From: an uncultured Piscirickettsiaceae bacterium
GTDB lineage: Bacteria; Pseudomonadota; Gammaproteobacteria; GCF-002020875
Assembly (NCBI GenBank): GCA_964344325.1
Contig: CAYFMX010000001.1
Coordinates: forward strand, 202,233 to 266,232
Reading direction: 5' to 3'
Length of the DNA stretch: 64,000 bases
Part shown: piece after piece, positions 17,133 to 59,300 of the stretch
Position numbering within the stretch: position 1 is the first letter of the stretch
Layout: every line of letters starts with the position of its first letter
Position numbers and translations under genes: made by a program
Notes under the pieces: model-generated
What the model was told of the DNA's origin: nothing
Database searches by the model: none
Seen by the model: the letters and a program-made list of their open reading frames with translations, nothing else

Positions 17133-17153
17133 TTTAAAACTGTTAAATGATTT

Positions 17154-19082: not shown

Positions 19083-19146
19083 ATGTTTTTTAACAAATAT
19101 TCAAGCAGCAGAAAAAATCAACCGAATTAAAACCGGGTTTCTAACT

Positions 19147-19536: not shown

Positions 19537-19548
19537 ACTCAAATCAAT

Positions 19549-23690: not shown

Positions 23691-23697
23691 TTTCTAT

Positions 23698-24720: not shown

Positions 24721-24827
24721 GGTGAATCAGTAGGAACTCAAAAAATCATTTCAGAAAAAACGAAAGAGAAAAAACCAAAGAAAATTGATATAGAAGTTAC
24801 ACGAAAATATAGAGACAGAATGTAAAA

Positions 24828-25793
24828 TCAAGCGTTTAAAATGTCCAGATAATTCTGAACCCCTGCATTCACATCCAGAAATTCTTTCGCATAGCCCACG
24901 TTACGTAACGCAGACATATCTGCTTCTGTGAAACTCTGGTATGCGCCCTTCAAATGATCTGGAAACGGAATGTATTCAATTCTTCCATTCTGTCCCTGCG
25001 CTTGATGCCATGCAACCACTGCATTTGCCATGTCGTTGAAGGATTGTGATTTTCCGGTTCCCAAATTGAAAATCCCGGATTTTTCCGGATGACCCAAAAA
25101 CCAAAGGTTCACATCAACCGCGTCCCCAACGTAGACAAAATCGCGCCGCTGCTCGCCATCTCCATATCCATCACAACCTGCAAACAATTTCGCAACCCCA
25201 TTGTCCAAAATCTGGTTGTTAAAGTGAAACGCTGTGCTCGACATCGTTCCTTTATGCTGCTCCCGCGGCCCATAAACATTGAAATAGCGGAAACCAACTA
25301 CCTGGCTGTTCTGCGCTGCAATTTCCGGCTGCAGTCGACGTACATACTGATCAAACTGAAATTTGGAATAGGCGTACATATTGATCGGCTTTTCGTGCTG
25401 CCGATCTTCCTTGAATACCGCGCCGCTACCATATACCGACGCAGAAGAAGCATACAAATACTGCGCCTTGTTCCTCAGACACCAATGGAGCAACGATTTG
25501 GAATATTCGTAGTTGTTTTCCATGATGAACAACCCATCCCACTCTGTTGTCGCGGAACACGCGCCCTCATGGAAAATCGCCTGTACATTCCCGCCAAATT
25601 TTTCACCCATTTCAACCCGTTCGATGAAATCGTGACGATCCATATAGTCAGCAATATCCAGATCGGAAAGATTGACCATCTTCCGACCATTTTTCAGGTT
25701 ATCGACCACCAAAATGTCGCGCTCGCCGCGCTCGTTCAACGCTTTGACAATATTGCTACCGATAAATCCGGCTCCGCCTGTCACAATAATCAT
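24828..25793 (-). CDS. hldD: ADP-L-glycero-D-manno-heptose-6-epimerase HldD
   Basis: [14 protein letters not shown] Rossmann start, SDR-type epimerase; start taken at the internal Met rather than the MSRCCCK extension. Confidence 0.85.
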
Positions 25794-25809
25794 TTTTTTT
25801 ATCTTTTCC

Positions 25810-28800: not shown

Positions 28801-29670
28801 CCAGCGCACCGCCTTTTTCCCGCCGGCATTCATCGCGATATTGCCGCCGATGGTCGAGGCGTTTTGCGAGGTAGGATCAACCGCAAAAGCCAACCCAGAT
28901 GACTCTGCTACATCGGTCACACGCTGGGTAACGACACCGGCTTCCGCACGAATACTCGCTACCCCACCGCCGCCACCGGGCAGATTGATACGCTCAATCT
29001 CGCTAATTTTTTCCAACCGTTCCAGATTGATGACAGCGGTATCCGCTTCCAGCGGCACTGCACTACCGGTATAACCCGTGCCGCCACCACGCGGGATCAT
29101 CGTCAAACCTAGCTCAATGCAAGCCTCGACAATGCCGCGTACTTCCTGTTCTGTATCGGGCGTAATGACGATAAATGGAAACTCGACGCGCCAATCCGAT
29201 GCATCCGTTGCATGAGAGACGCGTGCCAATCCATCAAAATGAATATTGTCTTTCGCAGTGACACGCGCCAGTTTGCGGAAGGTACGCTGGCGAAGTGGGG
29301 CTTGGCGGTTCAACCACTGTTCAAATTGGTCGACTGCATTTTCTGCGCTCTCCACTAATGCAAGTGTAAGCTGGTTGTTGTTGGCACGTTCCAGCACTTG
29401 CTGTAACCGAAAACGCAATGCATGAACCAACGACTGGCGGCGTTTCGCATTACCGATCAGATCATCCTGAATATAGGGGTTGCGGCGAATAACCCACATA
29501 TCGCCCAACGCTTCAAACATCATCCGCGCAGAACGCCCAGTTTTCCGCTGTCCGCGCAGTTGACTCAGAATCTCCCATGCCTCCTCACCCAGAAAACGGA
29601 TGACGATTTCACGGTCAGAAAACGAGGTGTAGTTATAGGGGATTTCGCGGATTCGGGGTGAAGATGACAT
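25810..29670 (-). CDS. DUF3683-FAD-binding oxidase fused to Fe-S (ferredoxin / CCG) oxidoreductase, YdiJ/GlcD-GlcF-like
   Basis: 1286 aa; FAD PCMH-type region, two CxxCxxCxxxCP 4Fe-4S motifs ([23 protein letters not shown]), C-terminal cysteine-rich CCG domains. Confidence 0.7.
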
Positions 29671-43061: not shown

Positions 43062-44420
43062 ATGGCAGAAAGCGGCGGACAGGAGAAAAAAACCCAGTGG
43101 CTGACCACGGTCGTCAGTGCGCTGGAAAATGATGATCCGCATGCTGTCCAGCCATTGGTGGAGAATCTCCACTGCTCCGATTCCGCCCATCTGGTCGAAT
43201 CACTGCCGCCCAAAGAGCGACAGGCATTCTGGGAGACACTAACCCCCGAACAACGCGCAGAAATCCTCCCGTGCCTGCACGATGAAGTCCGCGCCGGGTT
43301 GCTGGAGGCGATGGAGACGGAAGAGCTAACCGCCGTCGCCCACCAGATTGAAACGGATGACATGGCCGACCTGTTGCAGGACATGTCGTTCCAGCAGACG
43401 CAGGATGTGCTTCGTTCACTGGACGAGCAAAACCGCGAGCGTTTGGAGGAAGTGCTCTCCTACCCGGAAGATACGGCAGGCGGCTTGATGAATACCGACT
43501 GTATTCGTATCCGCCCCGATATTTCGATTGATGTGGTACTGCGTTACTTGCGGATGCGCGGCGAATTGCCGGAGATGACCAACAAACTGATGGTGGTTGA
43601 TCGGCACAATACCTTCCTTGGCGAACTACCTATCTCCATCATATTGACCACACCGCCGGAAGTAGAAGTTGGCGAAGTGATGCTCAAGGAGTGCGAATTC
43701 ATCCCGGCGATGACCTCAGATCATGAAGTTGCTGACTTGTTTGAAGATCACAATCTTGTCTCTGCGCCGGTGTTGGATGAACGTGGACGATTATTAGGGC
43801 GTATCACAATCGATGATGCGGTGGAGATTATTCGCGAAGAGGCGGAACGCACTCTCTTGAGTCGCGCCGGCATGAAGGAAGAGGAAGACACCTTCGCGCC
43901 GATCCGTACGAGCATGAAACGCCGCACCGTCTGGTTGGCGATCAACCTCGCAACGGCGTTTTTGGCAGCATGGGTGATCGGCCTGTTTGAACACACCTTG
44001 CAGCAAGTCATTGCGCTAGCCGTGCTGATGCCGATTGTTGCCAGCATGGGCGGCATCGCTGGCGGACAAACACTGACACTAGTGATCCGCGGCATGGCGA
44101 TGGATCAGATCAACGAAGCTAATACACGTTGGCTGATCCTGAAAGAACTAGCAGTCGGCGTGATGAATGGCGGGTTCTGGGCTGTGATTGTCGCAGCTAT
44201 TGCGGCACTTTGGTTCGGCGATCTAATGCTTGGTTTGGTAATTGCAGCAGCGATGCTGCTCAATTTGTCGATTGCCGCGCTGTCGGGCGTGGTAATCCCG
44301 ATGGTGCAGAAAAAAATGGGGATTGATCCAGCATTAGCGGGGTATGTAGTGTTGACGACCGTAACCGATGTGGTCGGTTTCTTTTCGTTTTTGGGGTTGG
44401 CAACGTTGATTTTATTGTAA
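43062..44420 (+). CDS. mgtE: magnesium transporter MgtE
   Basis: 452 aa, N-domain, tandem CBS, C-terminal 5-TM MgtE channel domain. Confidence 0.85.
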   Translation: MAESGGQEKKTQWLTTVVSALENDDPHAVQPLVENLHCSDSAHLVESLPPKERQAFWETLTPEQRAEILPCLHDEVRAGLLEAMETEELTAVAHQIETDDMADLLQDMSFQQTQDVLRSLDEQNRERLEEVLSYPEDTAGGLMNTDCIRIRPDISIDVVLRYLRMRGELPEMTNKLMVVDRHNTFLGELPISIILTTPPEVEVGEVMLKECEFIPAMTSDHEVADLFEDHNLVSAPVLDERGRLLGRITIDDAVEIIREEAERTLLSRAGMKEEEDTFAPIRTSMKRRTVWLAINLATAFLAAWVIGLFEHTLQQVIALAVLMPIVASMGGIAGGQTLTLVIRGMAMDQINEANTRWLILKELAVGVMNGGFWAVIVAAIAALWFGDLMLGLVIAAAMLLNLSIAALSGVVIPMVQKKMGIDPALAGYVVLTTVTDVVGFFSFLGLATLILL

Positions 44421-44454
44421 ATAGTGCTTGCGCGATATTCTATCTGTAGCCTTC

Positions 44455-44550
44455 CTATTTTTTATTCGCGTGCCTTACTGATTCCCAAACTACAATTCCC
44501 ATACCAATCAGAAAAATTGCCGTGATTAAAACAACCATCAAAAACTTCAT
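44455..44550 (-). CDS. 31-aa single-TM peptide (translationally coupled to the upstream ORF)
   Basis: Manual translation MKFLMVVLITAIFLIGMGIVVWESVRHANKK; its ATG overlaps the TAA of the 85-aa ORF (TAATG). Confidence 0.35.
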   Translation of the reverse strand: MKFLMVVLITAIFLIGMGIVVWESVRHANKK

Positions 44551-44807
44551 TACAACTCCTCCAATTGATCAATTTTCTTGTAAGCAAAATGGTTGATTCC
44601 TACGATGGACAACGTCACCAAAAAAGAAATACCGCCAATCAGAAACAGAAGCTTCCATGTAATTTGCTCCCAATTTTGAAACAACCAACCAATCAACGAC
44701 ACATCTATCGCAACCAGCAAGATATATGTCGCTTTCAACCAGCCAATCTCCTCTTTGATTTTCTCTGATCTCGACACGCTTTTCTCCATAAACTTCAAAA
44801 TCAGCAT
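44550..44807 (-). CDS. 85-aa two-TM small membrane protein
   Basis: ORF with two hydrophobic helices and a charged N-terminus; AT-rich accessory context. Confidence 0.4.
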   Translation of the reverse strand: MLILKFMEKSVSRSEKIKEEIGWLKATYILLVAIDVSLIGWLFQNWEQITWKLLFLIGGISFLVTLSIVGINHFAYKKIDQLEEL

Positions 44808-44881
44808 TGTACCTCAAACGTAAAAGAGCAAGCCCGCAGACCTGCCCTTCAATGGTAAATTTCGCAATCAATCACCAAATA

Positions 44882-45472
44882 TCAGAGCACTACAATCACC
44901 TGATTGCTCGGCAATGAACTGCCCACACTATTTTGCGCCACAACCTGATAGGCGACCTCTTCCCGTACTGGCTGATCCTGCAAGATGATTTCGCGGTCAA
45001 TCGCAACCTCTTCCGATCTCCCATCACGCACAATTCGGTAGTGAACCACTTTTCCACCATCGTTTGGCTCTTTCCAGCGCAGTGCAACCACGCCGGATAA
45101 AATCCGCTCTGCGGTCAATGTTCTGGGCTGTCCGGGAACCTTCGGCGCAGCACGCAAGTTGCGTCCGCCCCAACCGATCAAATTCAACTTAATATCATCA
45201 TTGCCGACCGTATTTTCTGCATAATTGATCGCGCTTCGCGCCATTGCTGCCAACTGCTCCAGATCGCCATTCTTTTTGGCAACCATCGCCTTTGCCAAGG
45301 CCTGCTGTGCAATCGTAGTCTCACGGGATGCATCAAATTCTGCAATGAGATCTTCAATTTCTTCCGGCGTGTTGGGCGGGGAAGGATACAAATCCACATT
45401 GTTCCGCAGCCCTTCTGCAAGGGAAGCAGCCAGTGCCCGTATTTCCAGCTCTTTTTTCGGGAAAACCGCCAT
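44882..45472 (-). CDS. hypothetical protein with C-terminal fibronectin type III-like domain
   Basis: 196 aa; helical N-half, C-terminal beta-rich FN3-like segment (PGQPRTLTAERILSGVVALRWKEP...). Confidence 0.45.
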   Translation of the reverse strand: MAVFPKKELEIRALAASLAEGLRNNVDLYPSPPNTPEEIEDLIAEFDASRETTIAQQALAKAMVAKKNGDLEQLAAMARSAINYAENTVGNDDIKLNLIGWGGRNLRAAPKVPGQPRTLTAERILSGVVALRWKEPNDGGKVVHYRIVRDGRSEEVAIDREIILQDQPVREEVAYQVVAQNSVGSSLPSNQVIVVL

Positions 45473-45693
45473 AATGACCTCCTAGTGACTCATCTATCTG
45501 ATACGCAGATCGTATTGGATAGAGATCATAAAGAGACGGAAAACCTTTTTAAAACAGAATGTTTTTATGGACGGAGAATATTTTCTTGTTGGTGGATGAA
45601 GTTGCAAAACAGTAGAATTCCCAGCTTTTTTAAGAAACAAACTCCTGCCAATAAACAAACGAAATTCTCTTGAAATTAAAGGGTATTGAACGA

Positions 45694-46773
45694 CTAAGGT
45701 ACTGCATTATGGCTGCATGGACGACATCGAGGACCTAACTCAACTCCCTGATATTTATATACTATCTCTTTTGCTTTAGTAACAACATCTCTCAACATTC
45801 CTTCATCGGGCGGACATCGACTACGAAGAGGAGTTGCTGGATCAGGACGAAATGGACTAAGAACTGGATCACAACCCCTTTCAGCCAAAGCTCTAATACC
45901 TTCCAGAGTCGATTCAATGCTTTCTAGTCCGACAAGTAGAGATGAACGAACACGCCCTACACCAAAAACTTCCACTGCCTGCTCAATAAATTCAAGATAG
46001 CACTCCCTAGATAATCCATACTTACGAGGAGTTATCTTTCTGGCTATTTGCTCATCAAAAACTTCAATATTTATTGATAAACCATAAATTCCTATGCGTT
46101 TAAGAAAATTTAAGTCAAGTAAGTCAGGATAAGGAACCATCATCACATCAATTTCAAGGTCAGGATAATAATTGCAGGTTGTCTCATAAACTTGTTGTAG
46201 ATACGAATAGTCTTCAACTTTAGGTGTTCCACCTGAGATCAACACATGACGTGGTGACAATTGTGGATCTTCTATCGCGACTCGGAGCGCATCCATCATT
46301 CGATCAATTGGATTTAGACGATATTTAGATGTGTAAGGTAAATCACAAAACGTACAGGTAATTGCGCATCCGTCCACCGGAGAGATACGCGCCCTATCTG
46401 CGTGTGTGTTTACATACTGAGTAAATGGCTCGCCCCATTGATTCAGTTTCCCATGATACGCAGGAACAGGAATTGGTGAAGCCATAATATTAGTATTAGG
46501 CCCAACCACGAAAAAACTACCACTGTTTGTCACAAGTTGATAAATTGGTTTTGTAACAAAGTTGTAATTATAATCGATGAAAGGTGTATTGACCCACACT
46601 TCTTGATTACGCATTGGATCAAATAGCTTTAGTGTAATTCCGTTTGTAGTAGCATAGTCTCCAGTAGTTAATTGATCAGTTCCCCAAATTTTGAAAAGCT
46701 CTGTGCGTGCATCTTGAGTAATCTCAATCCCTTTCGAATACAACGATAGTTTTAGAAATTCAATATTATTCAT
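45694..46773 (-). CDS. radical SAM enzyme
   Basis: 359 aa, CxxxCxxC cluster (CAITCTFC) after an N-terminal domain of about 130 aa, glycine-rich SAM-binding segment (ISGGTP); start overlaps the stop of the upstream NTPase gene. Confidence 0.75.
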   Translation of the reverse strand: MNNIEFLKLSLYSKGIEITQDARTELFKIWGTDQLTTGDYATTNGITLKLFDPMRNQEVWVNTPFIDYNYNFVTKPIYQLVTNSGSFFVVGPNTNIMASPIPVPAYHGKLNQWGEPFTQYVNTHADRARISPVDGCAITCTFCDLPYTSKYRLNPIDRMMDALRVAIEDPQLSPRHVLISGGTPKVEDYSYLQQVYETTCNYYPDLEIDVMMVPYPDLLDLNFLKRIGIYGLSINIEVFDEQIARKITPRKYGLSRECYLEFIEQAVEVFGVGRVRSSLLVGLESIESTLEGIRALAERGCDPVLSPFRPDPATPLRSRCPPDEGMLRDVVTKAKEIVYKYQGVELGPRCRPCSHNAVP

Positions 46774-48917
46774 TATTGTTCAGATTTAGTTTGCGAACCA
46801 CACGATATAATTTGATGCGCACTTGCATTAAGTAGTTTGGCACTACTTTGATCCCACATGCAATATTCAAACTTCGTTTCTTTGTTTGCAGAAATCACGC
46901 AACCATCAATGCTAACCAGTTGCTCCAAGCGAGCAAGCTGCACAGTAATATTATTAGACTTACCAAATGCAATAGCTGCTTTATCACTCTTATCGTGCTT
47001 CTGCTTAACCAACTCAGTAGGTCGTCCAACTTCTGAATCATAGTAAAAACTAACCTGGCATAATGTGGTTTCACCATCAAATGTTACATTTTCAAATCGA
47101 CAGCCCCTGAAATCAACTTGAGACTTTTCTTTAGCAATATCTATAAAGTCTGAGTCTTTGAATACACAGCACCAAAAAAGAACCCCTTGAAGATCGACAT
47201 TTCTAAATGTGCAATTGTCAAAGCTGATCCCTTTAAATATTGTTCCTTTGAAAGTCCATCCTGAAAAATCTATACCTGAAAACTCTGATAAATTCTGAAG
47301 TGATTTGAGATCTACATTTCCAATATCCGTAATGAAGGAACAACCCTGATAGAATTTAGCAGGTTGGAAATATGAGCTACTTAAATCTACTGACCCGCTC
47401 TGAAGCATAACATCTACTCCTACATTTTCTACAGGAGATGAGATACTATCTTCGAGCGTACCAAATATCTTTGACGCCCAATTACTTAATGCTGAACCTA
47501 AAAGATCATGAACTAGTTCAACACGCTTTCCTAAGCTATCTTCGCTATTATCATTATATGTCTTAAGAATATTCGCATTCTTAAGCACAGAAATGGTGTC
47601 ATTAAAATAAGATTCGATAGCCGATTGAGCATCTTCGTATATACCATATTTATTCATTAACTTCCGAGTATTGATCTCTTCATTTTCTATTAGCTTGTCG
47701 AGTAACTCCTTAGTGCGTATGGAAATCTTATAGTCACCAGCTGAAAGAAACGACGATATGCGTGCTGCTATCCAGCGAATATAGCCAACTCTACAAGACA
47801 TTTCAGTGTGATCACTATCACTGTTAAAGTCATTCAGCGACATTGTGATCCAACGTTCAAGTGCTTCAGAATAGACGAAAAGATAATCCTCTTCTTCCTG
47901 AGAATCTATGATGACTGATTGTTCATACCCCAATAGGTCTTCAATTAATACTCTTTTTTTCCCCTGTTTTTTAAGATACGAGAAAAACTCATAAGAAACA
48001 ACTTGTAAGGTGAGTAAGTTATTACTTCTGAAATCTAGTTTTTCTTCTATTCCTTTTTTCACCATAGAACAGTTCAGAATCAAACGATCTCTTGTATCTC
48101 TATCTAAGAATATATCTTCGCTCTCAAATGATTTTTCAATAATTAAGCCAACCTGCTTTGTGACACCATTCTGATCCGTAGAAGGTATAGCCTTGAGGAA
48201 ATATGCTCTGCGCATGATACTTCCTACCTCATGATCAAGGAAACGAAGTGCATGTAAATACTCTTCACGCAGAGAGATAAGAATACGAACTTGTTTGTTT
48301 AAATAATATAAATCCTTGATTAATTCTATTATTTCATTGCTTTCTTGCAACCTAGACCTAAATAGCTCCTCTAATTGGTCAAAAATTAATATTACTCCAC
48401 CATATTGCCTAACCAGTGACATAACGCTGGCGACAAACAGTTCGTTCTGGGCTCTGCTCCTAGCTTCATCTATCAATTGAGCTTTCTCCAGTATTCCACT
48501 TGCGATTTGGTAATCATTATGGTTCTTGAAGTCGGCTTCTTCCGGTGTTTTTTCAGGGTTAAGTCGTTCTATTGCTTCTGCCAAACTCATCCAGAGGTAT
48601 GTACGTAAATCAGCACTATTTGCGACTCCACCCCAGTCTCGAAATACAAGCACAGGGAAGGGATAGATAATTTTTTCAGAAGAATTTTCCAGAGATGCAT
48701 TTCGACGTTTTCCGAGTTCAGGTATTAAGCCAGCTCTCAGAAGCGATGTTTTACCAGCAGCACTTTCACCTGCTAAAACGTTAAGCTGCCAAAGCACCAT
48801 ATTCTGTATAAGTTCACCAATTTCTTTCTCACGGCCAAAAAAACGGGAATGGTGTCTCTCCTCATATGGAGTAGCACCCACAAATGGATTTGTACTTAGA
48901 TCGTTAATTGTATTCAT
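46773..48917 (-). CDS. STAND-type NTPase with C-terminal pentapeptide repeats
   Basis: 714 aa; FFGREKE-x-Walker A (GESAAGKTSLLRAGL), Walker B ILIFDQLEELF, large helical middle region, C-terminal pentapeptide-repeat beta-helix (DFSGWTFKGTIFKGISFDNCTFRNVDLQGVLF...). Confidence 0.7.
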   Translation of the reverse strand: MNTINDLSTNPFVGATPYEERHHSRFFGREKEIGELIQNMVLWQLNVLAGESAAGKTSLLRAGLIPELGKRRNASLENSSEKIIYPFPVLVFRDWGGVANSADLRTYLWMSLAEAIERLNPEKTPEEADFKNHNDYQIASGILEKAQLIDEARSRAQNELFVASVMSLVRQYGGVILIFDQLEELFRSRLQESNEIIELIKDLYYLNKQVRILISLREEYLHALRFLDHEVGSIMRRAYFLKAIPSTDQNGVTKQVGLIIEKSFESEDIFLDRDTRDRLILNCSMVKKGIEEKLDFRSNNLLTLQVVSYEFFSYLKKQGKKRVLIEDLLGYEQSVIIDSQEEEDYLFVYSEALERWITMSLNDFNSDSDHTEMSCRVGYIRWIAARISSFLSAGDYKISIRTKELLDKLIENEEINTRKLMNKYGIYEDAQSAIESYFNDTISVLKNANILKTYNDNSEDSLGKRVELVHDLLGSALSNWASKIFGTLEDSISSPVENVGVDVMLQSGSVDLSSSYFQPAKFYQGCSFITDIGNVDLKSLQNLSEFSGIDFSGWTFKGTIFKGISFDNCTFRNVDLQGVLFWCCVFKDSDFIDIAKEKSQVDFRGCRFENVTFDGETTLCQVSFYYDSEVGRPTELVKQKHDKSDKAAIAFGKSNNITVQLARLEQLVSIDGCVISANKETKFEYCMWDQSSAKLLNASAHQIISCGSQTKSEQ

Positions 48918-48962
48918 TTTATTAAAACCTGTGCAAACTAGAACAGTACTATATACACGATG

Positions 48963-50897
48963 TTAACGGCGTGTGAGATAAGATAGCGATCTGAAAAACA
49001 TATATAAATCGTCAGTTAGTGCAGGTTTAATATTGAGATTCTCACAATAAGCATGCTTTACCTCATCTTTAGACTGCATCACAGCGTATCGATGCCCATT
49101 TCTTTTATCATTCTGGCCTAGTGAAGGAGTCTCATTCTTACCTGTAGCCACTTGAAAATACAATTGTGAGCGTATATTCCAATCAGAAAGAGAATAGCCT
49201 AAAAACCAAAGACCGAATCTAGATCGTACAGTTTGTAGTGCAGCAAGAGGCATTTCGCGGCTAGTAGCTTCTGAAAGAACTTGGACATACCCACTTTCAG
49301 TGATGAGTGTCATATGGTTCCACCTAACTGAAGAAAATGGGCTCTGCTGCGGAATCTGTTCAGAAATGGAAGCAATATCAACGCTCGGTGCACCGTGTAA
49401 TTTCAATATAATTGGTCCTGGAATAGATTTATCATTGAGAATATTTTTTAAGCAATGACTCTGTGATTGTCCGCCTGACTGTGTATCACTATTTTCCGAC
49501 CGATCTTTACATATAATACTTGGTTCTAAACGGTGCACGCTATTTATTATAGTCTGTCGTACCCACGCAGTTTCTATCCCAGATGCACTATCTTGACTAC
49601 TATATTGACTAGAAGTGGAAATTTTTCCATCTAAATCTTGTGCCTTAGAAGAACTATCACCATCAAAGTGTATTTCCCGGTAAACTGGAAATAAAATATG
49701 AATAGCCCCCCATGGGGGATTTTCTACATTCATAAGAGCTATCTCAAGTGACTCATCATAGTTTGTTGTAAATAATAATGGAGGAATTTTTGGCTCGCAT
49801 GGATTATCCTTAATGCGTCGCTCGTTAGCTTGATACATCGCTTTTGTAACAGAAGCCAACGATTTATAGCCTGAACTTACAGGGAACAAATCTTTGGTTA
49901 TCCGGTGACAGTATGATATCCAGTTATCTATAACTTCAGAAACATGCTGTGGAAACATCTCTTGTTCACCATCCACGACAGCTAATGCCTCGGCAACCTG
50001 AGATAGTTCACCAACCACTCTGATTGGCTTTCCAGTTTTACGAAGAGTAAGTCGTAATGTTAATTCACGAGACGATGGTAGCAATGGATCGTCGAATCTG
50101 AACAAATGCCACAGAAAAGAAAATAACCATTGAATTTCATCGCCGAGAAAACTTAATTGCGAATCAGAGTATGCTCGCTTATTAACCGAATCAAATATTT
50201 CGACATGCTCGGGCGAAAAAAGATCAATCTCACCTCTTACTATTTTTGAAGCAAGATCTCTTAAAGCAGTTTCTATGCTTTCTGGGCACAATAAGAAGCA
50301 AATTTCGACATTTGTATCTTTTAAGAACTTCCTTATCTTAGTTGCATTCGATAGGCAATCATTTAATATCGAAACAGCTTCTCCTATACTTCGTTCGGGA
50401 ATAAGCAGTCTTGTATTAGGAAGCCAAGCAGTTAACGTGTTGCTATTTCTCGTTTGATCAGCAGCAACAGTATCTAAATAAACTAAGAATTTAAGAATAT
50501 TTTTTTGTAGTTGTATTAGTAACACTTCAAGTGGGCTTTCATCGAAAGCAATAGCCTCTGAACTATTAGCCCAGTTAGTATAAATCCCACACCAAGATAC
50601 CGTTTCTCTTCTTGCTTCAGAAAGGTAATTGATATCGGCAATGATATCGAGCAAGTGCTTTTCACTATCAGATGCAGAATATGATTTCAATCTGCCAAAT
50701 CGATATGCGCTAAGAGCTCCAGGTGCAGCCCGTAACATTTCGAAATCTTTATTATCAGATGATAATAGATTACTTATTACTTCAGGATCACGAAATGCTG
50801 AAACACCCGCACCTATGAAAGGAACAAAGCGCCCTGCTTCAACATCACGTCCTAAAAAACTGATCCATTCCTCCGTTTGCACTTTTGACACTCCCAT
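48963..50897 (-). CDS. SIR2-family (DHS-like NAD-binding) protein with large inserted middle region
   Basis: 644 aa; N-terminal FVPFIGAGVS (GAGxS) and C-terminal LWFLGYSLSDWNIR (GYSxxD) are the two hallmark motifs of the SIR2_2 family. Confidence 0.55.
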   Translation of the reverse strand: MGVSKVQTEEWISFLGRDVEAGRFVPFIGAGVSAFRDPEVISNLLSSDNKDFEMLRAAPGALSAYRFGRLKSYSASDSEKHLLDIIADINYLSEARRETVSWCGIYTNWANSSEAIAFDESPLEVLLIQLQKNILKFLVYLDTVAADQTRNSNTLTAWLPNTRLLIPERSIGEAVSILNDCLSNATKIRKFLKDTNVEICFLLCPESIETALRDLASKIVRGEIDLFSPEHVEIFDSVNKRAYSDSQLSFLGDEIQWLFSFLWHLFRFDDPLLPSSRELTLRLTLRKTGKPIRVVGELSQVAEALAVVDGEQEMFPQHVSEVIDNWISYCHRITKDLFPVSSGYKSLASVTKAMYQANERRIKDNPCEPKIPPLLFTTNYDESLEIALMNVENPPWGAIHILFPVYREIHFDGDSSSKAQDLDGKISTSSQYSSQDSASGIETAWVRQTIINSVHRLEPSIICKDRSENSDTQSGGQSQSHCLKNILNDKSIPGPIILKLHGAPSVDIASISEQIPQQSPFSSVRWNHMTLITESGYVQVLSEATSREMPLAALQTVRSRFGLWFLGYSLSDWNIRSQLYFQVATGKNETPSLGQNDKRNGHRYAVMQSKDEVKHAYCENLNIKPALTDDLYMFFRSLSYLTRR

Positions 50898-50913
50898 TGA
50901 ATTGGTATTTTAT

Positions 50914-52290
50914 TTAGAAAATAGATTTTATTTTTTGTATTTTATCTTGATATTCAAGAGTCAATTTACCATCAAGCTTGCTGACACTTTCATTCGTTTG
51001 AAAACGACATATTATTGCATTTGGATCCACTTTAATTCCAGATGGAGGTAGTACAGACAAAATACCATTAAATTCTCGTCCAACCTCTAGATTAATCTTT
51101 GGCTCAACCGGATTTTTCTCAAGATTACGAATCACTACATGACTCATCTCAGGCTGTTCTTCAACTAATTGACAAACATGCCTATCAGGAGGTGGACATA
51201 ACCCTAGATAAGCAGAAATATGTTCAATATACAAATCAGGCTGCCCGATTTGTTGATCAAGCAATGCTGCGACTGATGAAGAACCTTGAAAACGTGGATT
51301 AACCTCAACTAAATAGAGCTTATTTTCATAGATTAATGCATCAATACCGAATGCGCCTATATACCTTTCCTTATATAACCAATTGCCTACAAATCGCCCG
51401 AGTAAATCCAGTTCTCCTAAAAGTTCTGGCTCAATTCTTTTTATCAATCCAAAATCATTGCCACAATAGGAAAACGGATTTCTCGTAAGTGCAGGATCAC
51501 CTACAATTTGTATCGAAGGCCCATGGAGACGTACTTCCGATGTATTTGATGACTGCCCAGAAAATACACACCCATTTATACTTATAGGTATACTATCATG
51601 AATATATGGAGCAACCGAGCAGTATCCATCTCTATTATTTTCCAGTTTATCCCATATTTTATTTAAGCCATTTTCATTTTCTACTAGAAAAAGACCATTA
51701 CCACCGGTAGATCTATTTAACCTAACTACTAAAGAACCATTATTCAGCATCTCTTCAAGCATAGGTCTCGAAGAATCTGTTATTAGAAAATATTTCCAAT
51801 CAATAAAATTGATAGGAACTTGAATCTTATCTCGTTCTTTTTTTAACTCCGTCTCAACCCAAACTTTATGCTCAAATGCATTCTGACGTTCTTGAAAAAG
51901 ACCGGCGAATTGCGCATGATTTTCTCTTGGAAAAATTACTGAAGTTAAAACATTATATGGTCGATACGGAACAAGCACACAGCGTTGATCGACAGCTTTC
52001 GAAAGTAACTGCCATAATTCACAAACAGCTTTTTTTTCTACACTGTTAGAAGGCTTATCATCGACAGAATATGCATCAAGGTCAACTCTCCGCCCTGTTA
52101 ATGTCTCTAAGCATTGTCCTCCGATTCCAGGCCAATCATTAAGAGGCGAAATAATCGAAAACACATCTCCGAATTGCGGCAATTCCATCAGAGGCTTAGC
52201 ATCGCAACCTCGGGTGCCAAACCAAATGATCCGTTGCCCTTCAAGGGCAGACGAAAGAGTTTGGAGATAGTTGTGCCTAACATGCTCCAC
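50914..52290 (-). CDS. ATP-grasp family ligase
   Basis: 458 aa; glycine-rich loop GGNGLFLV, C-terminal LYLVEVNPRFQGSS (ATP-grasp E-x-N-x-R Mg-binding motif). Confidence 0.6.
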   Translation of the reverse strand: MEHVRHNYLQTLSSALEGQRIIWFGTRGCDAKPLMELPQFGDVFSIISPLNDWPGIGGQCLETLTGRRVDLDAYSVDDKPSNSVEKKAVCELWQLLSKAVDQRCVLVPYRPYNVLTSVIFPRENHAQFAGLFQERQNAFEHKVWVETELKKERDKIQVPINFIDWKYFLITDSSRPMLEEMLNNGSLVVRLNRSTGGNGLFLVENENGLNKIWDKLENNRDGYCSVAPYIHDSIPISINGCVFSGQSSNTSEVRLHGPSIQIVGDPALTRNPFSYCGNDFGLIKRIEPELLGELDLLGRFVGNWLYKERYIGAFGIDALIYENKLYLVEVNPRFQGSSSVAALLDQQIGQPDLYIEHISAYLGLCPPPDRHVCQLVEEQPEMSHVVIRNLEKNPVEPKINLEVGREFNGILSVLPPSGIKVDPNAIICRFQTNESVSKLDGKLTLEYQDKIQKIKSIF

Positions 52291-52385
52291 AGTAGTATTT
52301 ACCCCTTTAATATCTAAAATCTGTTAGTCTTTGATAAAGCTATTTCACGCACGATTCTTAAAAAAACCCAAGGAATCTAATGTAA

Positions 52386-53615
52386 ATGAACAACCCCAAA
52401 CAACTAGGCCCACATCCCACGGGGGGATGGATTTCAGAAGATGAAGCACTTATTTTTGAATTCCATAAAAAATTACCTGAATGGCTACTAGATATAACAC
52501 CACCTTGCTTTATTTATGACCTCGAAAAATTTCGAGAAGAAATCAAAACCATATTAGATACATTCCCACAGTACCGTTACCCATTGAAGTGTAATCCTCA
52601 TCCATCATTACTCGCTACTGTGTTGTCATTAGGTGCAGGGGTAGATGTTTGTTCTGTTGGAGAATTAGAAAAAGCCTTGATGGAAGATGCACCCGGTCAC
52701 TTAATTAATTACTGTAGCGTTTCTTATACTACTGCGCTCATCGACCATTTAGTGAGTATAGAAGCAACTGTCACACTAAACAACCTTGATGATCTACAAT
52801 TGATGTTAGCACGCCATCCTGCTCAGACACCAAGTTTACGTATAGAAGCAATTGATCCAAATACTCCTTATGGCGACAAATTCGGTTTTTCGATGAACCA
52901 ATGGAGCCATGTTGAGAAAATTTTGAATCAATATCAGACTTACTTGAGTGGTTTGCATATTCACACTTCTCATTCTCCTGATATAAACCAACTTACTCAA
53001 CGTTTATCCCCATTACTAGTAGCATTAGAAAGGTTAAAAGATTGGGTTCCAAAAATGCATTTTCTCAATCTAGGTGGAGGATGGCCTATGCTTTATGGTG
53101 CCCAGTTTCATTCTGTAACTGCGAAAGATTTTGAAAAAATTTTAGAAAAAGACTTCCTACCGAAAGCCAAGAAACTCGGCTTTAAGGGCGAAGTGTTAGT
53201 TGAACCTGGGGAATATGTAACTTCATCTATGGGATACTGGGTGGCTGAAGTCACTGGGGTTAAAAAAAACGAAATAAATTTACCAATAGTCTTCGCAAAT
53301 ACTCCAGGAGTAGTTCCATCAGCAGAGATTGCATATCCAACAGCATTATTTCGAAAATGCAAAGCTGGCTGGGAAAGAGTCCAAAATGAATTAGTCACTG
53401 TCAAAATTGTTGCAGCAACAAATTCCCCATTCGATACGATTCGCCCTACAGTAATGCTACCAATGCCTCAAGCTGGTGATCGGCTGGTATTTGGACAAAC
53501 TGGAGCATATCTACCTTGTTTGATGGGAACCTTTAATAGTATTCCGGCTCCCCACACATACATTGTCCACAAAAATACCTCTTCTCCTATTTCCCACCCC
53601 CGATCCTACACTTGA
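52386..53615 (+). CDS. fold-type III PLP-dependent decarboxylase (Orn/DAP/Arg decarboxylase family)
   Basis: 409 aa; YPLKCNPHP (PLP-lysine K-C-N motif), GAGVDVCSVGELE, C-terminal beta-sandwich with the GAY motif; divergent from the ATP-grasp gene. Confidence 0.7.
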   Translation: MNNPKQLGPHPTGGWISEDEALIFEFHKKLPEWLLDITPPCFIYDLEKFREEIKTILDTFPQYRYPLKCNPHPSLLATVLSLGAGVDVCSVGELEKALMEDAPGHLINYCSVSYTTALIDHLVSIEATVTLNNLDDLQLMLARHPAQTPSLRIEAIDPNTPYGDKFGFSMNQWSHVEKILNQYQTYLSGLHIHTSHSPDINQLTQRLSPLLVALERLKDWVPKMHFLNLGGGWPMLYGAQFHSVTAKDFEKILEKDFLPKAKKLGFKGEVLVEPGEYVTSSMGYWVAEVTGVKKNEINLPIVFANTPGVVPSAEIAYPTALFRKCKAGWERVQNELVTVKIVAATNSPFDTIRPTVMLPMPQAGDRLVFGQTGAYLPCLMGTFNSIPAPHTYIVHKNTSSPISHPRSYT

Positions 53616-53829
53616 AAAAATACATCATTTCATACTTGCCCCACATCACATTAAATCCGACATACTTCATCCCATACTTCCATCAACCTAAAACACTCCT
53701 CCCCCAAACCATCCCCTCCCTCACATTACCCAATTCCCCCTTCACCCTTCCCTTTTGAAGTATCACCGATAGAATGTCCGCCTTCACAAGCCGTTGCGCG
53801 GCTCTCCCTTTTCAGGAACCAAATCCCAC

Positions 53830-54192
53830 ATGGAACAAAACGAACTGCAAACCCTCGTCGTCAACGCGCTGGAGGATATGAAAGCCAACGACATCACCGT
53901 CATGGATGTCTCCGCACTGACCAGCATGACCAACACGCTGGTGATCGCCAGCGGAACCTCCGACCGCCACGTCCGCGCCTGCGCCAATGCCGTTTCACAG
54001 GAAGCCAAACAGGCTGGCGTAAAACCGCTGGGCACAGAAGGGGAAGATTCTGGAGAATGGGTACTGGTCGATTTGGGCGATATCATCGTCCATGTAATGA
54101 AACCGGAAGCCCGTGAATATTACGATCTGGAAAAATTCTGGACCGACTTTTCCCGCAATGGCGAAAAAGAATCCGGGTCAGAAAACGCGTGA
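53830..54192 (+). CDS. rsfS: ribosomal silencing factor RsfS (Iojap)
   Basis: About 120 aa, conserved RsfS sequence, followed by rlmH. Confidence 0.85.
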   Translation: MEQNELQTLVVNALEDMKANDITVMDVSALTSMTNTLVIASGTSDRHVRACANAVSQEAKQAGVKPLGTEGEDSGEWVLVDLGDIIVHVMKPEAREYYDLEKFWTDFSRNGEKESGSENA

Positions 54193-54677
54193 AAATCCGT
54201 CTGCTCTCCGTCGGCAAAAAAATGCCGGATTGGGTCAATTCGGGATTTGCCGAATATGCCAAGCGAATGCCGCGTGAATGTGCGCTGGAACTGACCGAAA
54301 TTGAACCGGCGATGCGCGGAAAAAGTGGCAATAAAAGTATCAGTGCAGCACAAGCAAACCAATGGAAAGAAGAAGAAGGGAAAAAAATCCTCTCACATAC
54401 AAATAAGGAGCACATCGTTGCGCTGGATGTGAAAGGAAAACCGTGGTCAACGGAACAACTCGCCAGCCAACTCGAAAACTGGATGCAAATCGGCTCTGAC
54501 CTCGCCCTGCTGATCGGCAGCCCGGAAGGGTTATCCAAAGCCTGCCTGCAACGTGCAAACCAACACTGGTCGCTCTCCCCGCTCACCTTCCCCCATCCGC
54601 TGGTACGCGTCATTGTCGCCGAACAACTCTATCGGGCGTGGACAATCACCCAGAATCATCCGTATCATCGCGCCTAA
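54189..54677 (+). CDS. rlmH: 23S rRNA (pseudouridine1915-N3)-methyltransferase RlmH
   Basis: 162 aa SPOUT family, rsfS-rlmH pair. Confidence 0.85.
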   Translation: MKIRLLSVGKKMPDWVNSGFAEYAKRMPRECALELTEIEPAMRGKSGNKSISAAQANQWKEEEGKKILSHTNKEHIVALDVKGKPWSTEQLASQLENWMQIGSDLALLIGSPEGLSKACLQRANQHWSLSPLTFPHPLVRVIVAEQLYRAWTITQNHPYHRA

Positions 54678-54815
54678 TACTTTACGAAATTCTCCAAAAC
54701 CTCCGGATTTCCAATTTTCTGTTTGAATGATTTCAGAAACCCAGAGAAAGCTTTTCCTTATGGGCGCAAGAAATCATTTGGACAGAAATAAAAATCTGTA
54801 ACAGGACACACCATT

Positions 54816-56294
54816 TTGAGCACCGAAATTCTGGTCAACGTAACCCCCCGCGAAACCCGCACCGCGCTAGTCGAAAGCGGCGTACTGCAAGAAGTCTATA
54901 TTGAACGCAGCAGCCAACTGGGGATGGTCGGCAACATCTACAAAGGCAAAGTGAGCCGCGTACTGCCGGGGATGCAAGCCGCATTCGTCGATGTCGGACT
55001 GGAACGCGCTGCCTTTTTGCATGTCTCCGATATCCGCCCTCGCGCCGCAAAAGAAGAAGTCGTCTGCGAAGAGGGTGAACCTGCGAAAACCATCACTGAA
55101 CTGGTTTCCGAAGGGCAAGAACTGCTGGTTCAAATCATCAAAGAACCGCTCGGCACCAAAGGCGCACGGCTGACGACTCAACTTTCGATCCCATCTCGTT
55201 ATCTCGTCTTTATGCCATCAATTGCCTGCATTGGCGTCTCCCAGCGCATCGAAGAGGAAGAAGAACGCACTCGTTTGCGCAGCACCATGCAGCAAATCGT
55301 CGATGAAAATAGTTCCGGCGGCTTCATCGTGCGCACCGTGGCGGAAGGTGTTTCTGAAGAGGAATTGCGGCGCGAAGCCGGTTTTTTGCACAAGTTGTGG
55401 GACTCCATCATGGAACAGGGCACAGCAGCAAAATCGTGCTCGTTGGTGCATCAGGATTTGCCTCTCGCACTACGCACCATTCGTGATCAGTTGAAAGATT
55501 CGGTCGAGCGGATGCGGATCGACTCTCGCCAAACCTATGAAAAATGTTTGAAATTTGCCTCGCAATTCAATCCGGAACTCGCTTCCCGCGTCGAGCACTA
55601 CATTGAAGAGTCGCCGATTTTTGATTTCTTCTCCATCGACAGCGAAATCCAGAAAGCATTGCAGCGTAAGGTTCCACTCAAGTCAGGAGGCTATCTGATC
55701 ATCGACCAGACCGAAGCGATGACGACGATTGATGTCAATACTGGCTCGTTTGTTGGTCATCATAACTTGGAAGAAACTATCTTCAAAACCAATCTCGAAG
55801 CAACACAGGCAATTGCCCGCCAGGTACGGCTGCGCAATCTGGGTGGCATCATCATCCTTGATTTGATTGATATGGAGCAAGAGGAGCACCGCCAGCAGGT
55901 GATGCGCTCGCTGCAAAAATATCTGGATCATGATCCGGCACGCACCCAAGTCAGCTCTGTTTCTGCACTTGGGCTCGTCGAAATGACCCGCAAACGTACG
56001 CGCGAAAGTCTGGAGTATGTACTCTGTCAAACCTGCCCTACCTGTAGCGGACGCGGCACATTGAAAACGGCAGAAACAGTTTGCTACGAAATCTTCCGCG
56101 AAATCATCCGCGAAGCGCGGCAATATGATGATTCGCGTGAATTTCTGGTACTTGCTGCACAGGAAATTGCCGATCTGTTGCTGGACGAAGAATCAAGCAG
56201 TGTCGCAGAACTGGAAGAATTCATCGGCAAGCCGATCCGGCTGCAGGTCGAGACCCTCTACACCCCGGAGCAGTTCGATGTGGTTCCTGTTTAA
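54816..56294 (+). CDS. rng: ribonuclease G
   Basis: 492 aa, N-terminal S1 domain, near-identical start to E. coli Rng (EILVNVTPRETR), followed by yhdP. Confidence 0.9.
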   Translation: MSTEILVNVTPRETRTALVESGVLQEVYIERSSQLGMVGNIYKGKVSRVLPGMQAAFVDVGLERAAFLHVSDIRPRAAKEEVVCEEGEPAKTITELVSEGQELLVQIIKEPLGTKGARLTTQLSIPSRYLVFMPSIACIGVSQRIEEEEERTRLRSTMQQIVDENSSGGFIVRTVAEGVSEEELRREAGFLHKLWDSIMEQGTAAKSCSLVHQDLPLALRTIRDQLKDSVERMRIDSRQTYEKCLKFASQFNPELASRVEHYIEESPIFDFFSIDSEIQKALQRKVPLKSGGYLIIDQTEAMTTIDVNTGSFVGHHNLEETIFKTNLEATQAIARQVRLRNLGGIIILDLIDMEQEEHRQQVMRSLQKYLDHDPARTQVSSVSALGLVEMTRKRTRESLEYVLCQTCPTCSGRGTLKTAETVCYEIFREIIREARQYDDSREFLVLAAQEIADLLLDEESSSVAELEEFIGKPIRLQVETLYTPEQFDVVPV

Positions 56295-56389
56295 TTTAGT
56301 CTATCTTTACAATGAATTTTAGAGGCTAACCAAACGCTGATGAAATTCGAATTTTGATCAATAATTGGTAGTTTGATGATGAATATGCA

Positions 56390-59300
56390 ATGAATCCACA
56401 AGCTCGGGAAATTCCCGATTTCTTCCGCATGTTCTATTTTTCACGTTTTCCTCATTTCTGGAAAACGGTCAGAGTATTATTTTTCAGTATTATCAGTATG
56501 CTGTTGGTATTGTGGGGCATATTGTGGACGCTTGTGCCCGTTTCCAGCCTTTACCAGCAACAAGTCGAACAATCTATCTCTGATTTTCTGGATGCACCCT
56601 TTACGTTTGAAACGGTTGAAGCCGAGTTAAACGGCACAATACTTTCTCTCTCCCTTCAGGGCGCAAATGCCAAAAACCAAACAGGTGAAAAAATTCTCCT
56701 GTTTGAAGAAATGCATGCAGAGATTAACCTGCTCCAATCCTTACTCGCATGGGAATGGATTACCAATGAACTGATTTTGTGGAAACCGCAGCTTGCAGTC
56801 CACAAACGCACAGATGGTCAAATGACAGTGAACGGTTTTGTGATGATTCCAGCATCTGTCGATGCTCAAACACACACGAAACAGCAACAAACCGGACAAC
56901 ACATTGAGCAAACTGAAATTTCAGAAATCGAATTCTGGCTTGATTCATTAGAGGAATTGGGCTGGTTATGGAAGCAACCCTATCTGCGTCTGGAACAGGC
57001 TACTTTCTCGTGGAAAATAGATCACCCGGCAGGGCAGTTACATTGGGCGCTTCCTGAAATAAATAGTGTAATTCGTAACGGAAAAGCACGACATCAATTG
57101 TCTGGAACAGCTCAAGTTGGTACTGGAGGCCAAGGGACGTTGCAGTTGGAAGCTGACTGGACTGGCGCATGGAATAATCCGCGTAACTGGCAAGGTGTAC
57201 TACATATTCAAGGCGAATCAGTAGAGATGAAAAATCTGCTCGGTGGTTCAGAAAGCCCATGGCCAGAATTAATTCAAGGACAGCGTGATCTCTCTTTTTG
57301 GGGAGTACATGGCGGGACTGGAAATTGGGAAGTCGTTACTGATTTAGCTGTTGCGGAAAATCAAACAACGAATCAGGGATTACTAGATGGTCAAATTGCG
57401 TGGAAACGCTCTGGAGATGGGAACTGGCGACTAGGGCTCAGTAATTTTTTCTGGTCAGGATATCAACCACTGACTGTATTGATAGAACAACAGGTCTCTC
57501 AGAATGGAGAAACTACCTGGCTAGGACAAACTGAACAACTTGACTTATCTGTACTCAATCCATTTTTACACAATCGGGGCATACAATATCTATTTCCACA
57601 ATTACCTGCACAATTTGATATAGGTGGCTCTTTAGAACAAGCTAATTTTCGTCTGCTGGATCATGGAAAAACTTGGATGGATCGACTACGAGTAGAGGCT
57701 ACGCTGAATCAACTTTCTGCTAAACAGATCAATACAGCTACCCAGTTCGCTGGAATCAGTGGAAAAATACAATGGCGGAAAAACGCAGGTGAATTTATTT
57801 ATCCAAAAAACACCATCCAATTAGCACATCATCATATTGCACCAGAACTACTGCATATGGAGCTAACACCTGGCGTTGTATCATGGACTAAACAAAGCCA
57901 AGGTTGGCAAGTTTCAGCAAAAGAAATTCATTTATCGGATGGTAACCTCATATTCAACAGCGATCTCTCTCTTTTCCTGGAAGAAGGAAAATCACCGCTA
58001 ATTGATGCCAATACCGGTTTCTCTGTACATGATACGGCACCATTATTCCGTAATTTGTCGCAGAGCACATTAGGGCAGCAAGAAATCTGGTTACAGTACG
58101 GCATCCGTCAGGCAGAGCTGGTTAATGGCAAGGTCATACTACGTGGATATCTGGATCAGTTCCCTTACCACCAAGAAGAAGGGGAATTTAAAGTCACCTG
58201 TGATATTCACAATGCTGAAGTGAGATTCATGCGGAATTGGCCACTGCTTAAAAATGCAAATGCACAATTCCAGTTTGATCATCATGGAATGAATGTGGCG
58301 ATTCATTCTGGAGAAATTGCTGGAAATCCAGTACAGCAAGCAAATGTGAAAATCCGCTCATTCCAGAAAAAAGAGCTAGAGGTTGATGTACAACTTGCCA
58401 GCGAGAGTAGAAATCTTATTCATCTTCTGGAACGGGGAGTACTCCAGAAACGCTTAGAAAGTCGATCGTTACCACTATATATAACGGGTATTGCAAACTT
58501 GGATGTGAATATGTTTGTGCCATTACACAATCCAAAACAAACCCAGATACAAGGCACATTACAACTCACTGATAATCAGTTACATCTACCTGATCTTGAT
58601 TTACGGGCGGAAAAACTGTCCGGTGCTATCGCATTTACTAAAAGCACGATCACTGCAGAACAGATTAATGGCCAGATGCTGGGAGGACCTATTCGTATTT
58701 CTGCATCCACGCAACAACAATCCCGAATCAATAATCCAACACAATCTGACTCTCATTTTGTAAAGCTTGTGCTGAAAGGAAAATCTAATCTTCATCACTG
58801 GCCGCCTTGGCAGCAATGGATTAACCCAAAAAAGCAAAAAAATTTAGAGCCACAAAAACATTCCATGTGGCATAGCATTGGAATCATTCCGTTGTCAGCA
58901 TTTCAGGAAAATGAAAAACAACCCATTAGATTTTTGTTCCGTTCTGATCTGGAAGGAGTCGCGATTCCATTGCCGAAACCGCTCCAAAAACAGGTTGGTG
59001 AGCGCTGGCCAACTATGTTTAACGCCGAGATCGGTCAAACACTAGATATGCAATTCATGGTCGATCAACGTCTCCAAGCCAGTGTGATACGAGAAAATAG
59101 CGAGACAGAATTAGAATCTAAAAACATATGGCGTGCCAGCGTATCATTAGGTGATTCACTATATGAAACCAAAACACCTCAACCTGCAACAAAAGCAGTT
59201 TCAGTACGAGATGGAATCTCACTACAAGGAGAGTTTAAAACATTATCACTGCAGCCGTGGTTAGAGACAATCCGTGATCTCATGGATAGAAAACAAGACG

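Follow-up and report, generated by a model that had tools for sequence, protein, structure and literature searches.

The window (the whole 64,000-nucleotide stretch of DNA analysed here) carries, on its minus strand, a gene for a long SIR2-type protein that sits within a tight co-directional block of four genes, encoding an ATP-grasp ligase, the SIR2 protein, an nSTAND1 NTPase and a radical SAM enzyme; a fifth gene, for a decarboxylase, is divergent. The ATP-grasp gene lies 16 nt upstream of the SIR2 gene, the gap between the SIR2 and STAND genes is 45 nt, and the radical SAM gene overlaps the STAND stop codon by 1 nt. The genes, and the features of the SIR2 protein (in its own residue numbering), are as follows:

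52386..53615, plus strand: fold-type III PLP decarboxylase (Orn/Lys/DAP type), 409 aa; Orn_Arg_deC_N, E 9e-23
50914..52290, minus strand: ATP-grasp ligase, 458 aa; Pfam ATP-grasp_3, E329xNxR motif
48963..50897, minus strand: long SIR2_2-type protein, 644 aa; open reading frame call
50799..50828, minus strand: FVPFIGAGVS, residues 24-33, strand β1 and the GAG NAD-binding loop; aligned with the GAG motif of KomC
49779..50795, minus strand: insertion 1, residues 35-373, helical throughout; about 258 aa more than in KomC
50043..50129, minus strand: family-signature block WLFSFLWHLFRFDDPLLPSSRELTLRLTL within insertion 1, residues 257-285; recognized by its conservation
49755..49769, minus strand: catalytic TTNYD motif, residues 377-381; aligned with TTNYD of KomC
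49413..49685, minus strand: insertion 2, residues ~405-495, β-hairpins and low-confidence loops; about 105 aa more than in KomC
49389..49403, minus strand: KLHGA motif with the putative catalytic His501, residues 499-503; position verified
49170..49211, minus strand: LWFLGYSLSDWNIR motif, residues 563-576; aligned with FIGYSFSDTNIR of KomC
46773..48917, minus strand: nSTAND1 P-loop NTPase with C-terminal pentapeptide repeats, 714 aa; PF20703
45694..46773, minus strand: radical SAM enzyme, 359 aa; Pfam Radical_SAM, NCBIfam NF045502 at 126.9 bits

The SIR2 assignment is supported at several levels. Pfam SIR2_2 (PF13289) matches the 644-residue protein with an E-value of 8.4e-12 and a score of 45.8 bits (gathering threshold 24.5), the match being confined to residues 487-625 and to profile positions 33-140 of 141. 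The first ~32 positions, which hold the GAG loop, find no local counterpart, and the loop must therefore lie far off in the sequence; such partial coverage is what a split domain would give. A weak PDB match is to 9v0g_E (KomC, a 278-residue SIR2 protein) and comprises three collinear pieces, namely residues 12-34 (GAG), 374-389 (TTNYD) and 531-580 (GYSxSD); a profile built from 42 family members also matches KomC in three collinear pieces, with an E-value of 7.5e-16. In the predicted model, the 644-residue protein adopts one Rossmann-type fold that can be superposed on the solved structures of SIR2 NADases; its core is made up of residues ~1-34, ~250-400 and ~496-644 and is broken by two expansions. 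In the 42-member alignment, the GAG loop, the Asn and Asp of TTNYD and the catalytic His are all conserved: residues G29, W263, L298, T378, D381, E385, P404, W445, K499, H501, G502, E534, Y537, G567 and D572 are invariant, and T377 and N379 are at least 90% conserved. We are thus highly confident that the protein is a SIR2_2, or defence-type, SIR2 with the DHS-like NAD-binding fold, and its domain is predicted to be catalytically competent from the complete fold and the retention of the catalytic residues.

Much of this was anticipated by an earlier note on this DNA, which had placed FVPFIGAGVS near the N-terminus (residues 24-33) and a second diagnostic motif near the C-terminus; the latter is LWFLGYSLSDWNIR, at residues 563-576, and the pair is far more than chance would give. 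It had also proposed a split SIR2 core, as borne out by the partial Pfam match together with the three KomC pieces, and had suggested a structural check of whether the N- and C-terminal segments share one Rossmann fold, which they do in the predicted model. Several hundred residues do part the two motifs (529), but the claim that all of these are unassigned does not hold, as both TTNYD and KLHGA lie between them; similarly, the single insertion of ~450 residues is replaced by two, of about +258 and +105 residues relative to KomC. The description of an unusual SIR2 variant and possible NAD+-depleting effector is supported, subject to four corrections: the two insertions, the partial conservation of the insert, the wider family and the multi-gene cassette.

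The sizes of the insertions were counted from the alignments relative to the compact KomC (278 aa). From the GAG loop to the Asn of TTNYD there are 350 residues, as against 92 in KomC (+258), and from this Asn to the glycine of the GYS motif there are 188, as against 83 (+105). Across the family, the GAG-to-Asn spacing ranges from 280 to 396 residues and the Asn-to-His spacing from 69 to 123 (122 in the window protein). The N-terminal two-thirds of insertion 1 is variable, whereas the helical subdomain of an ordinary SIR2 protein probably has its equivalent within the C-terminal part of this insertion. Within the signature block (residues 257-285), W263 is accompanied by W257, L261, R267, P274, E278 and L279, each at least 90% conserved in the 42 members; residues 261-280 (LLWHxxRFDxPxxPxxxEL) average 2.99 bits per position, where the GAG and GYS blocks score 2.62 and 3.31, respectively. 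Conservation is low, or the alignment gapped, at residues 41-60, 101-120, 221-240, 421-440 and 461-480. In the predicted model, insertion 2 contributes strands at 398-410, 442-451 and 460-464, with pLDDT values below 50 at 420-438 and 468-478, and contains the invariant W445. A Pfam search of the 42 members gave no domain besides SIR2_2, save for one match at chance level. The EACC1 domain (Kaur 2020) was considered for the conserved insert and rejected, as it is a single transmembrane helix; a match of residues 280-337 to xenorhabdolysin subunit B (NCBIfam), at 16.7 bits against a cut-off of 40, was taken as chance.

The protein is not a one-off, being a member of a family with a mostly shared layout. 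A word-indexed protein search returned the identical protein and one relative of 35% identity only, whether queried with the single sequence or with the 42-member profile, and a scan of genome contigs returned just the contig that carries this relative, from a Rhodospirillales metagenome-assembled genome (MAG). The family, missed by the word index, was revealed by an exhaustive profile search (hmmsearch), which gave 289 cluster representatives with E < 1e-3, including 90 with E < 1e-10. Most are 550-650 residues long and match both the insert (profile positions ~250-420) and the C-terminal SIR2 part; the 42 that were aligned share ~22% identity with the window protein and all match PF13289. 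A search of viral proteins in BFVD produced no match (best E-value 0.2), and a scan of viral contigs produced one weak, generic SIR2 match, and hence there is no sign of a phage origin.

The immediate partner of the SIR2 protein is a clear nSTAND1 protein: PF20703 scores 82.1 bits against a cut-off of 27.1, pentapeptide families are also matched, and both the Walker A (GESAAGKT) and Walker B (VILIFDQLE) motifs are intact. Pfam detects no DNA-binding domain in it, nor is there a detectable effector-associated adaptor domain; the nSTAND1 match begins at residue 11. For the ATP-grasp and radical SAM proteins, single-sequence searches of the PDB were empty, and family profiles gave relatives. The ATP-grasp profile is nearest PurT, biotin carboxylase and the amino-acid ligases BesA and PGM1, and that of the radical SAM enzyme is nearest ThiH, HydG and MqnE; the latter enzyme has the cysteines C136xxxC140xxC143 and an extra invariant pair, C350xxC353. 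A viperin-like or RiPP-maturase identity was considered for the radical SAM enzyme and discarded, given these relatives and the lack of a PADLOC match. On the basis of their sequence relatives, both proteins are predicted to be small-molecule enzymes, and not viperins or RiPP maturases. The PDB relatives of the decarboxylase are Lys, Orn and DAP decarboxylases.

The arrangement recurs elsewhere. In the Rhodospirillales MAG, all five genes occur in the same order and orientation, with identities to the window proteins of 60% (radical SAM), 49% (ATP-grasp), 44% (STAND), 43% (decarboxylase) and 35% (SIR2). Neighbours were counted at 36 non-redundant metagenome loci of the long family and at 38 loci of shorter SIR2_2 relatives. 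A STAND gene lies directly downstream of the SIR2 gene at 33/33 testable long-family loci, an ATP-grasp gene directly upstream at 22/30, and a radical SAM gene is present at 20-22 of 36-39; decarboxylase homologues occur in 6-7 other cassettes. With the shorter relatives, STAND is again downstream (28/31), an ATP-grasp gene is never upstream (0/24) and no radical SAM gene adjoins. SIR2 and STAND are separate genes at 39/39 loci, and additional loci looked up individually show the same arrangement. The nSTAND1 domain was also found in the partners at nine further loci; all of the long-family STAND partners that were checked combine it with pentapeptide repeats, one of them having an added FGE-sulfatase domain, and the one short-family partner checked (L048) has WD40 repeats in place of the pentapeptides.

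Unbiased clustering of all open reading frames, with the clusters named by Pfam, brought out further recurrent neighbours. A GNAT acetyltransferase replaces the ATP-grasp ligase at five loci (L020, L023, L025, L027 and L030), an Asp/Orn carbamoyltransferase-like gene is found at five, and a hexapeptide acyltransferase at one (L040). At 11 loci, the STAND gene is directly adjoined by the full gene set of a Liv-type ABC importer, comprising permeases, ATPases and a Peripla_BP_6 binding protein; a decarboxylase homologue brackets this importer on its far side at two of them (L027 and L030). The SIR2 proteins linked to importers belong to at least three subclades that are only 25-28% identical to one another, which argues that the linkage is functional and not merely inherited synteny. 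Overall, the linkage of the SIR2 gene to one for an nSTAND1-pentapeptide NTPase is obligatory, and its linkage to amide-forming, radical SAM, decarboxylase and importer genes is frequent.

In the window, the cassette is a low-GC accessory island, patchy in its distribution and absent from relatives. Its GC content is 0.36-0.40, as against ~0.50 on both sides. The host is an uncultured gammaproteobacterium, as the nearest MgtE orthologues (69% identical) are from Gammaproteobacteria MAGs, and these relatives were used for comparison. In three of them, the cassette is lacking and the genes pmbA-tldD-yhdP-rng-(maf)-rlmH-rsfS, on the other strand, begin 10-57 bp after mgtE. The window differs in that its rsfS-rlmH-rng-yhdP block is inverted, with an island of ~9 kb at the junction. 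The island edges were searched for a tRNA, an integrase and flanking repeats, and none was found; promoter-like sites are no commoner than in shuffled sequence. Elsewhere, the surroundings are mixed. Some loci border genes that can be recognized as defence or mobile ones: one locus (L003) is flanked by DarT, ADP-ribosylglycohydrolase, HNH, UvrD, patatin and an IS110 transposase, a second (L008) by a UvrD-type helicase, and a third (L027) by a Ser/Thr kinase-TPR protein; others adjoin housekeeping genes, such as those for cytochromes (L025 and L030) and efflux pumps. Amongst 67 flank proteins from 15 loci, Macro (3), UvrD/GajB-like (2) and transposase (2) proteins stand beside many housekeeping ones, these counts having no background control; PADLOC matches in the pooled flank proteins, which are not assigned to individual loci, are GajB-, NERD+UvrD-, PD-T4-6- and MADS-like.

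The SIR2-STAND cassette is described in no PADLOC or Pfam model, nor in the literature searched. PADLOC-DB 2.0 has no match for the SIR2 protein of the window or for the accessory proteins, and for the STAND protein gives only a marginal match to LeoA (E = 0.013; nothing else at E ≤ 0.1). Of the family members, a minority give weak generic SIR2 matches, and 5/42 give weak matches to ThsA through the SIR2 part. A full-text literature search found nothing that joins SIR2, STAND, ATP-grasp and radical SAM. Kaur et al. 2021 (PMC8195603) introduced nSTAND1 as a clade of STAND proteins that belong to counter-invader systems; the passages of that paper on nSTAND1, SIR2 and pentapeptides contain nothing on this SIR2 family or on an association with ATP-grasp, radical SAM, decarboxylase or Liv genes, and neither do the passages searched in its companion of 2020, where SIR2 goes unmentioned. 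The likeness to such nSTAND1-centred systems is that the partner gene here is a clear nSTAND1, and that the shorter SIR2_2 relatives also precede an nSTAND1 gene (28/31).

The closest characterized systems are Avs5 and Kongming. Avs5 is a SIR2-STAND fusion that acts as an anti-phage NADase activated by filamentation (PMC11897194, PMC12931631). In Avs5 (AVAST type 5; EfAvs5, PDB codes: 9jap and 9nc9) the two parts are fused, whereas here they are separate genes; moreover, the STAND protein here is of the nSTAND1 clade with a pentapeptide-repeat C-terminus, the SIR2 protein has ~360 extra residues and is not recognized by PADLOC, and ATP-grasp, radical SAM, decarboxylase and importer genes accompany the pair. 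Kongming has a SIR2 NADase effector, KomBC, activated by dITP, as described in the abstract of PMC13454610; KomC (PDB codes: 9v0g and 8zsf) is a compact protein of 264-278 residues, whose partners are KomA (a deaminase) and KomB (HAM1-like), whereas neither lies next to the SIR2 gene here, where the partner is a STAND NTPase. In contrast to Thoeris ThsA, there is no SLOG/STALD domain in the protein and no ThsB TIR partner among its neighbours, and in contrast to SIR2-HerA (Nezha) and DSR2, there is neither a HerA helicase nor a DSR2-type C-terminal sensor; relative to all three, the protein has far larger insertions, located elsewhere in the sequence. As for classical sirtuin deacylases, the Zn-binding Cys4 module between the His and GxS is missing here, as is any CxxC, the similarity to them and to SirTM is much lower than to the immune NADases, and the helical module here is four times larger.

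We consider it fairly probable that the SIR2 protein is an NAD+-consuming enzyme controlled by its STAND partner. The SIR2 protein would be the effector half, and the nSTAND1-pentapeptide NTPase the other half, of an Avs5-like system encoded as two polypeptides. A trigger would bind to the pentapeptide repeats, as the sensor of the STAND protein, and ATP-dependent oligomerization would then recruit and cluster SIR2, probably via the conserved helical insert (block 257-285); this insert would stand in for the covalent link present in Avs5 and may, in addition, keep the enzyme auto-inhibited at rest. Once clustered, SIR2 would hydrolyse NAD+ and so arrest the cell. The ATP-grasp ligase or GNAT, the ThiH-like radical SAM enzyme and the decarboxylase (with the Liv importer at other loci) may make or process an amino-acid-derived small molecule that either gates the SIR2-STAND module or is coupled to NAD+ cleavage; this is the least certain step. 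Taken as a whole chain, a STAND-controlled SIR2 NADase with small-molecule accessory enzymes has roughly an even chance of being right. A more novel reading, of low but credible probability, is a metabolite-coupled, NLR-like system, in which an amino-acid-derived amine or amide, imported by the Liv-type transporter or made by the decarboxylase, radical SAM and ATP-grasp or GNAT enzymes, would arm STAND-SIR2 or accept ADP-ribose, and in which the helical insert would bind this molecule or the enzyme that makes it.

Alternatively, the cassette could encode a small-molecule pathway and have no role in immunity, which we regard as a serious rival, though less likely than the immune reading. An amino acid, either imported or endogenous, would be decarboxylated, carbamoylated, cleaved and amide-ligated by the PLP decarboxylase, the OTCase-like enzyme, the ThiH-like radical SAM enzyme and the ATP-grasp ligase or GNAT; SIR2 would use NAD+ catalytically on this metabolite or on one of the enzymes (through ADP-ribosyl transfer or base exchange onto an amine, or through NAD-dependent deacylation of the amide), and the STAND NTPase would be a ligand-sensing regulator or an assembly factor. 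Such a pathway explains the importer and the enzyme set better than does the immune reading: the accessory genes are all for small-molecule amino-acid enzymes, and a Liv importer complete with its periplasmic binding protein abuts STAND at 11 loci. To our knowledge, no defence system described so far has this last arrangement. The plain housekeeping flanks at several loci, including the cytochromes of L025 and L030, and the lack of a model for SIR2, STAND or the accessory genes in PADLOC 2023 also weigh against immunity. However, an immune-type SIR2 and a STAND protein are poorly explained by a metabolic role: the nearest relatives, by structure and by sequence, are all immune NADases and not deacylases or SirTM, and there is no Zn-ribbon or CxxC pair in the SIR2 protein. 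Moreover, its invariable partner is of the nSTAND1 clade, described only in conflict systems, and has no Pfam DNA-binding domain. The shorter relatives, too, keep the SIR2-nSTAND1 pair without an adjoining ATP-grasp or radical SAM gene; some long-family loci (L036) lack ATP-grasp, GNAT and radical SAM in the sequence available; and the cassette is a patchy, low-GC island.

It is much less likely, and indeed improbable, that the SIR2 domain has lost catalysis and serves as a scaffold or ligand sensor, binding NAD+ or a nucleotide without cleaving it, with the insertions carrying the function, for instance as an adaptor for the STAND protein or the enzymes. Non-SIR2 sequence makes up over half of the protein (~360 aa), block 257-285 is conserved like the catalytic motifs, and SIR2/DHS-like folds can act as binding modules; nevertheless, 42 members at ~22% identity share G29, D381 and H501 without exception, and N379 in at least 90% of cases, which argues for selection on catalysis, as pseudoenzymes usually lose such residues. 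That the motifs are coincidental, lie in unrelated domains or belong to a mis-assembled or fused reading frame with no split SIR2, a suspicion invited by the Pfam alignment of only the C-terminal 140 residues and by an uninformative AF2 model from two sequences (pLDDT 37), is refuted for practical purposes by the collinear match of the family profile to KomC and by the single SIR2 fold.

SIR2 NADases under the control of STAND, or NLR-like, ATPases are an established theme in bacterial immunity, as exemplified by Avs5; in the solved examples considered here, the SIR2 domains are compact and none is tied to biosynthetic enzymes or importers. The present family illustrates that a SIR2 core tolerates ~360 inserted residues, which have long been retained and contain a block that matches the active site in conservation. 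The cassette is an undescribed one that may represent a new immune system acting by NAD depletion or else a new pathway that uses NAD and, with only four to five genes, it is small enough for direct testing. If the acceptor of ADP-ribose envisaged above were real, the product would be a new signal or toxin of the ADP-ribosyl-amino-acid type. If the cassette serves in defence, it would be a new system, probably one that involves a small molecule at some step; a metabolic cassette, by contrast, would be the first case of an nSTAND1-SIR2 pair recruited into a pathway. Either outcome would widen the known roles of SIR2 enzymes and of bacterial NLR-like proteins.

The SIR2-STAND cassette lies exactly at a rearrangement junction between the window and the loci of three related Gammaproteobacteria MAGs that do not carry it (L084, L085 and L086). 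Relative to all three, the rsfS–rlmH–rng–yhdP block is inverted in window 43062–60496, and mgtE is no longer adjoined by pmbA and tldD, as it is in the relatives. The window also lacks maf between rlmH and rng, as does L086. Beside the cassette, two ORFs in window 44421–45693, where the GC content is intermediate (0.46), fall within the stretch that the relatives do not have:

44550–44807, minus strand, predicted membrane protein of 85 aa
44882–45472, minus strand, 196-aa protein with a weak match (E 0.0014) to a fibronectin-III-like domain at its C-terminus

Because ORF clustering found no counterpart of either at the other cassette loci, both are probably cargo unrelated to the cassette.

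A second region of low GC content (0.32–0.39) in the window, at about 18000–25900, holds LPS-core and O-antigen genes and is an ordinary variable surface-polysaccharide locus. A further gene encodes a protein that is probably a large Fe-S flavoprotein resembling glycolate and lactate oxidases:

about 18000–25900, three family-9 heptosyltransferases, GT2 and GT4 glycosyltransferases, a Wzy_C O-antigen ligase and an NAD-dependent epimerase
25810–29670, minus strand, multidomain protein of 1286 aa with DUF3683, FAD-linked oxidase, 4Fe-4S dicluster, CCG cysteine-rich and DUF3400 domains

Within the cassette, it is uncertain whether the ATG giving a SIR2 protein of 644 aa is the true start: one database copy has 639 aa and begins five codons downstream, a second deposited copy has the same length as ours, and upstream of the ATG there is no clear Shine-Dalgarno sequence (start region, window 50883–50897). 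In the radical SAM (rSAM) family, a C-terminal GPRCxPCxHN motif is invariant besides CxxxCxxC in the family alignment (A5; window 45694–46773), with residues Cys350, Cys353 and Asn356, and His355 conserved in at least 90%. The motif points to an auxiliary site that would hold a metal or a cluster; this putative site is not seen, by sequence, in the nearest solved relatives.

Elsewhere, the cassette of locus L003 is adjoined (15026–21430) by genes for an HNH protein, an ADP-ribosylglycohydrolase and DarT, the last two forming a DarTG-like pair, a UvrD helicase and a patatin phospholipase. Farther upstream of the cassette lies a gene for an IS110 transposase; these surroundings look like a defence island. 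The ATP-grasp gene of L003 (8645–9981) and the decarboxylase gene of L001 (3–1057; coverage 2.6×) are each broken into two ORFs, reflecting either sequencing frameshifts in low-coverage assemblies or decay of the accessory genes there.

The STAND partner in L040 (9116–12250) carries an added C-terminal FGE-sulfatase (formylglycine-generating-enzyme-like) domain beyond its pentapeptide repeats; in conflict proteins, this domain often serves as a sensor or as a module that binds ligands. Tandem duplication within the cassette is seen at four loci: L025 (2780–11333) has two consecutive SIR2-STAND pairs, the SIR2s of which are only about 40% identical, L016 (3905–8988) has the STAND gene twice, and L007 (7278–8588) and L039 (5119–6525) have a second SIR2 gene after the STAND or PLP decarboxylase gene. 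Paralogue arrays of this kind are typical of diversifying immune loci.
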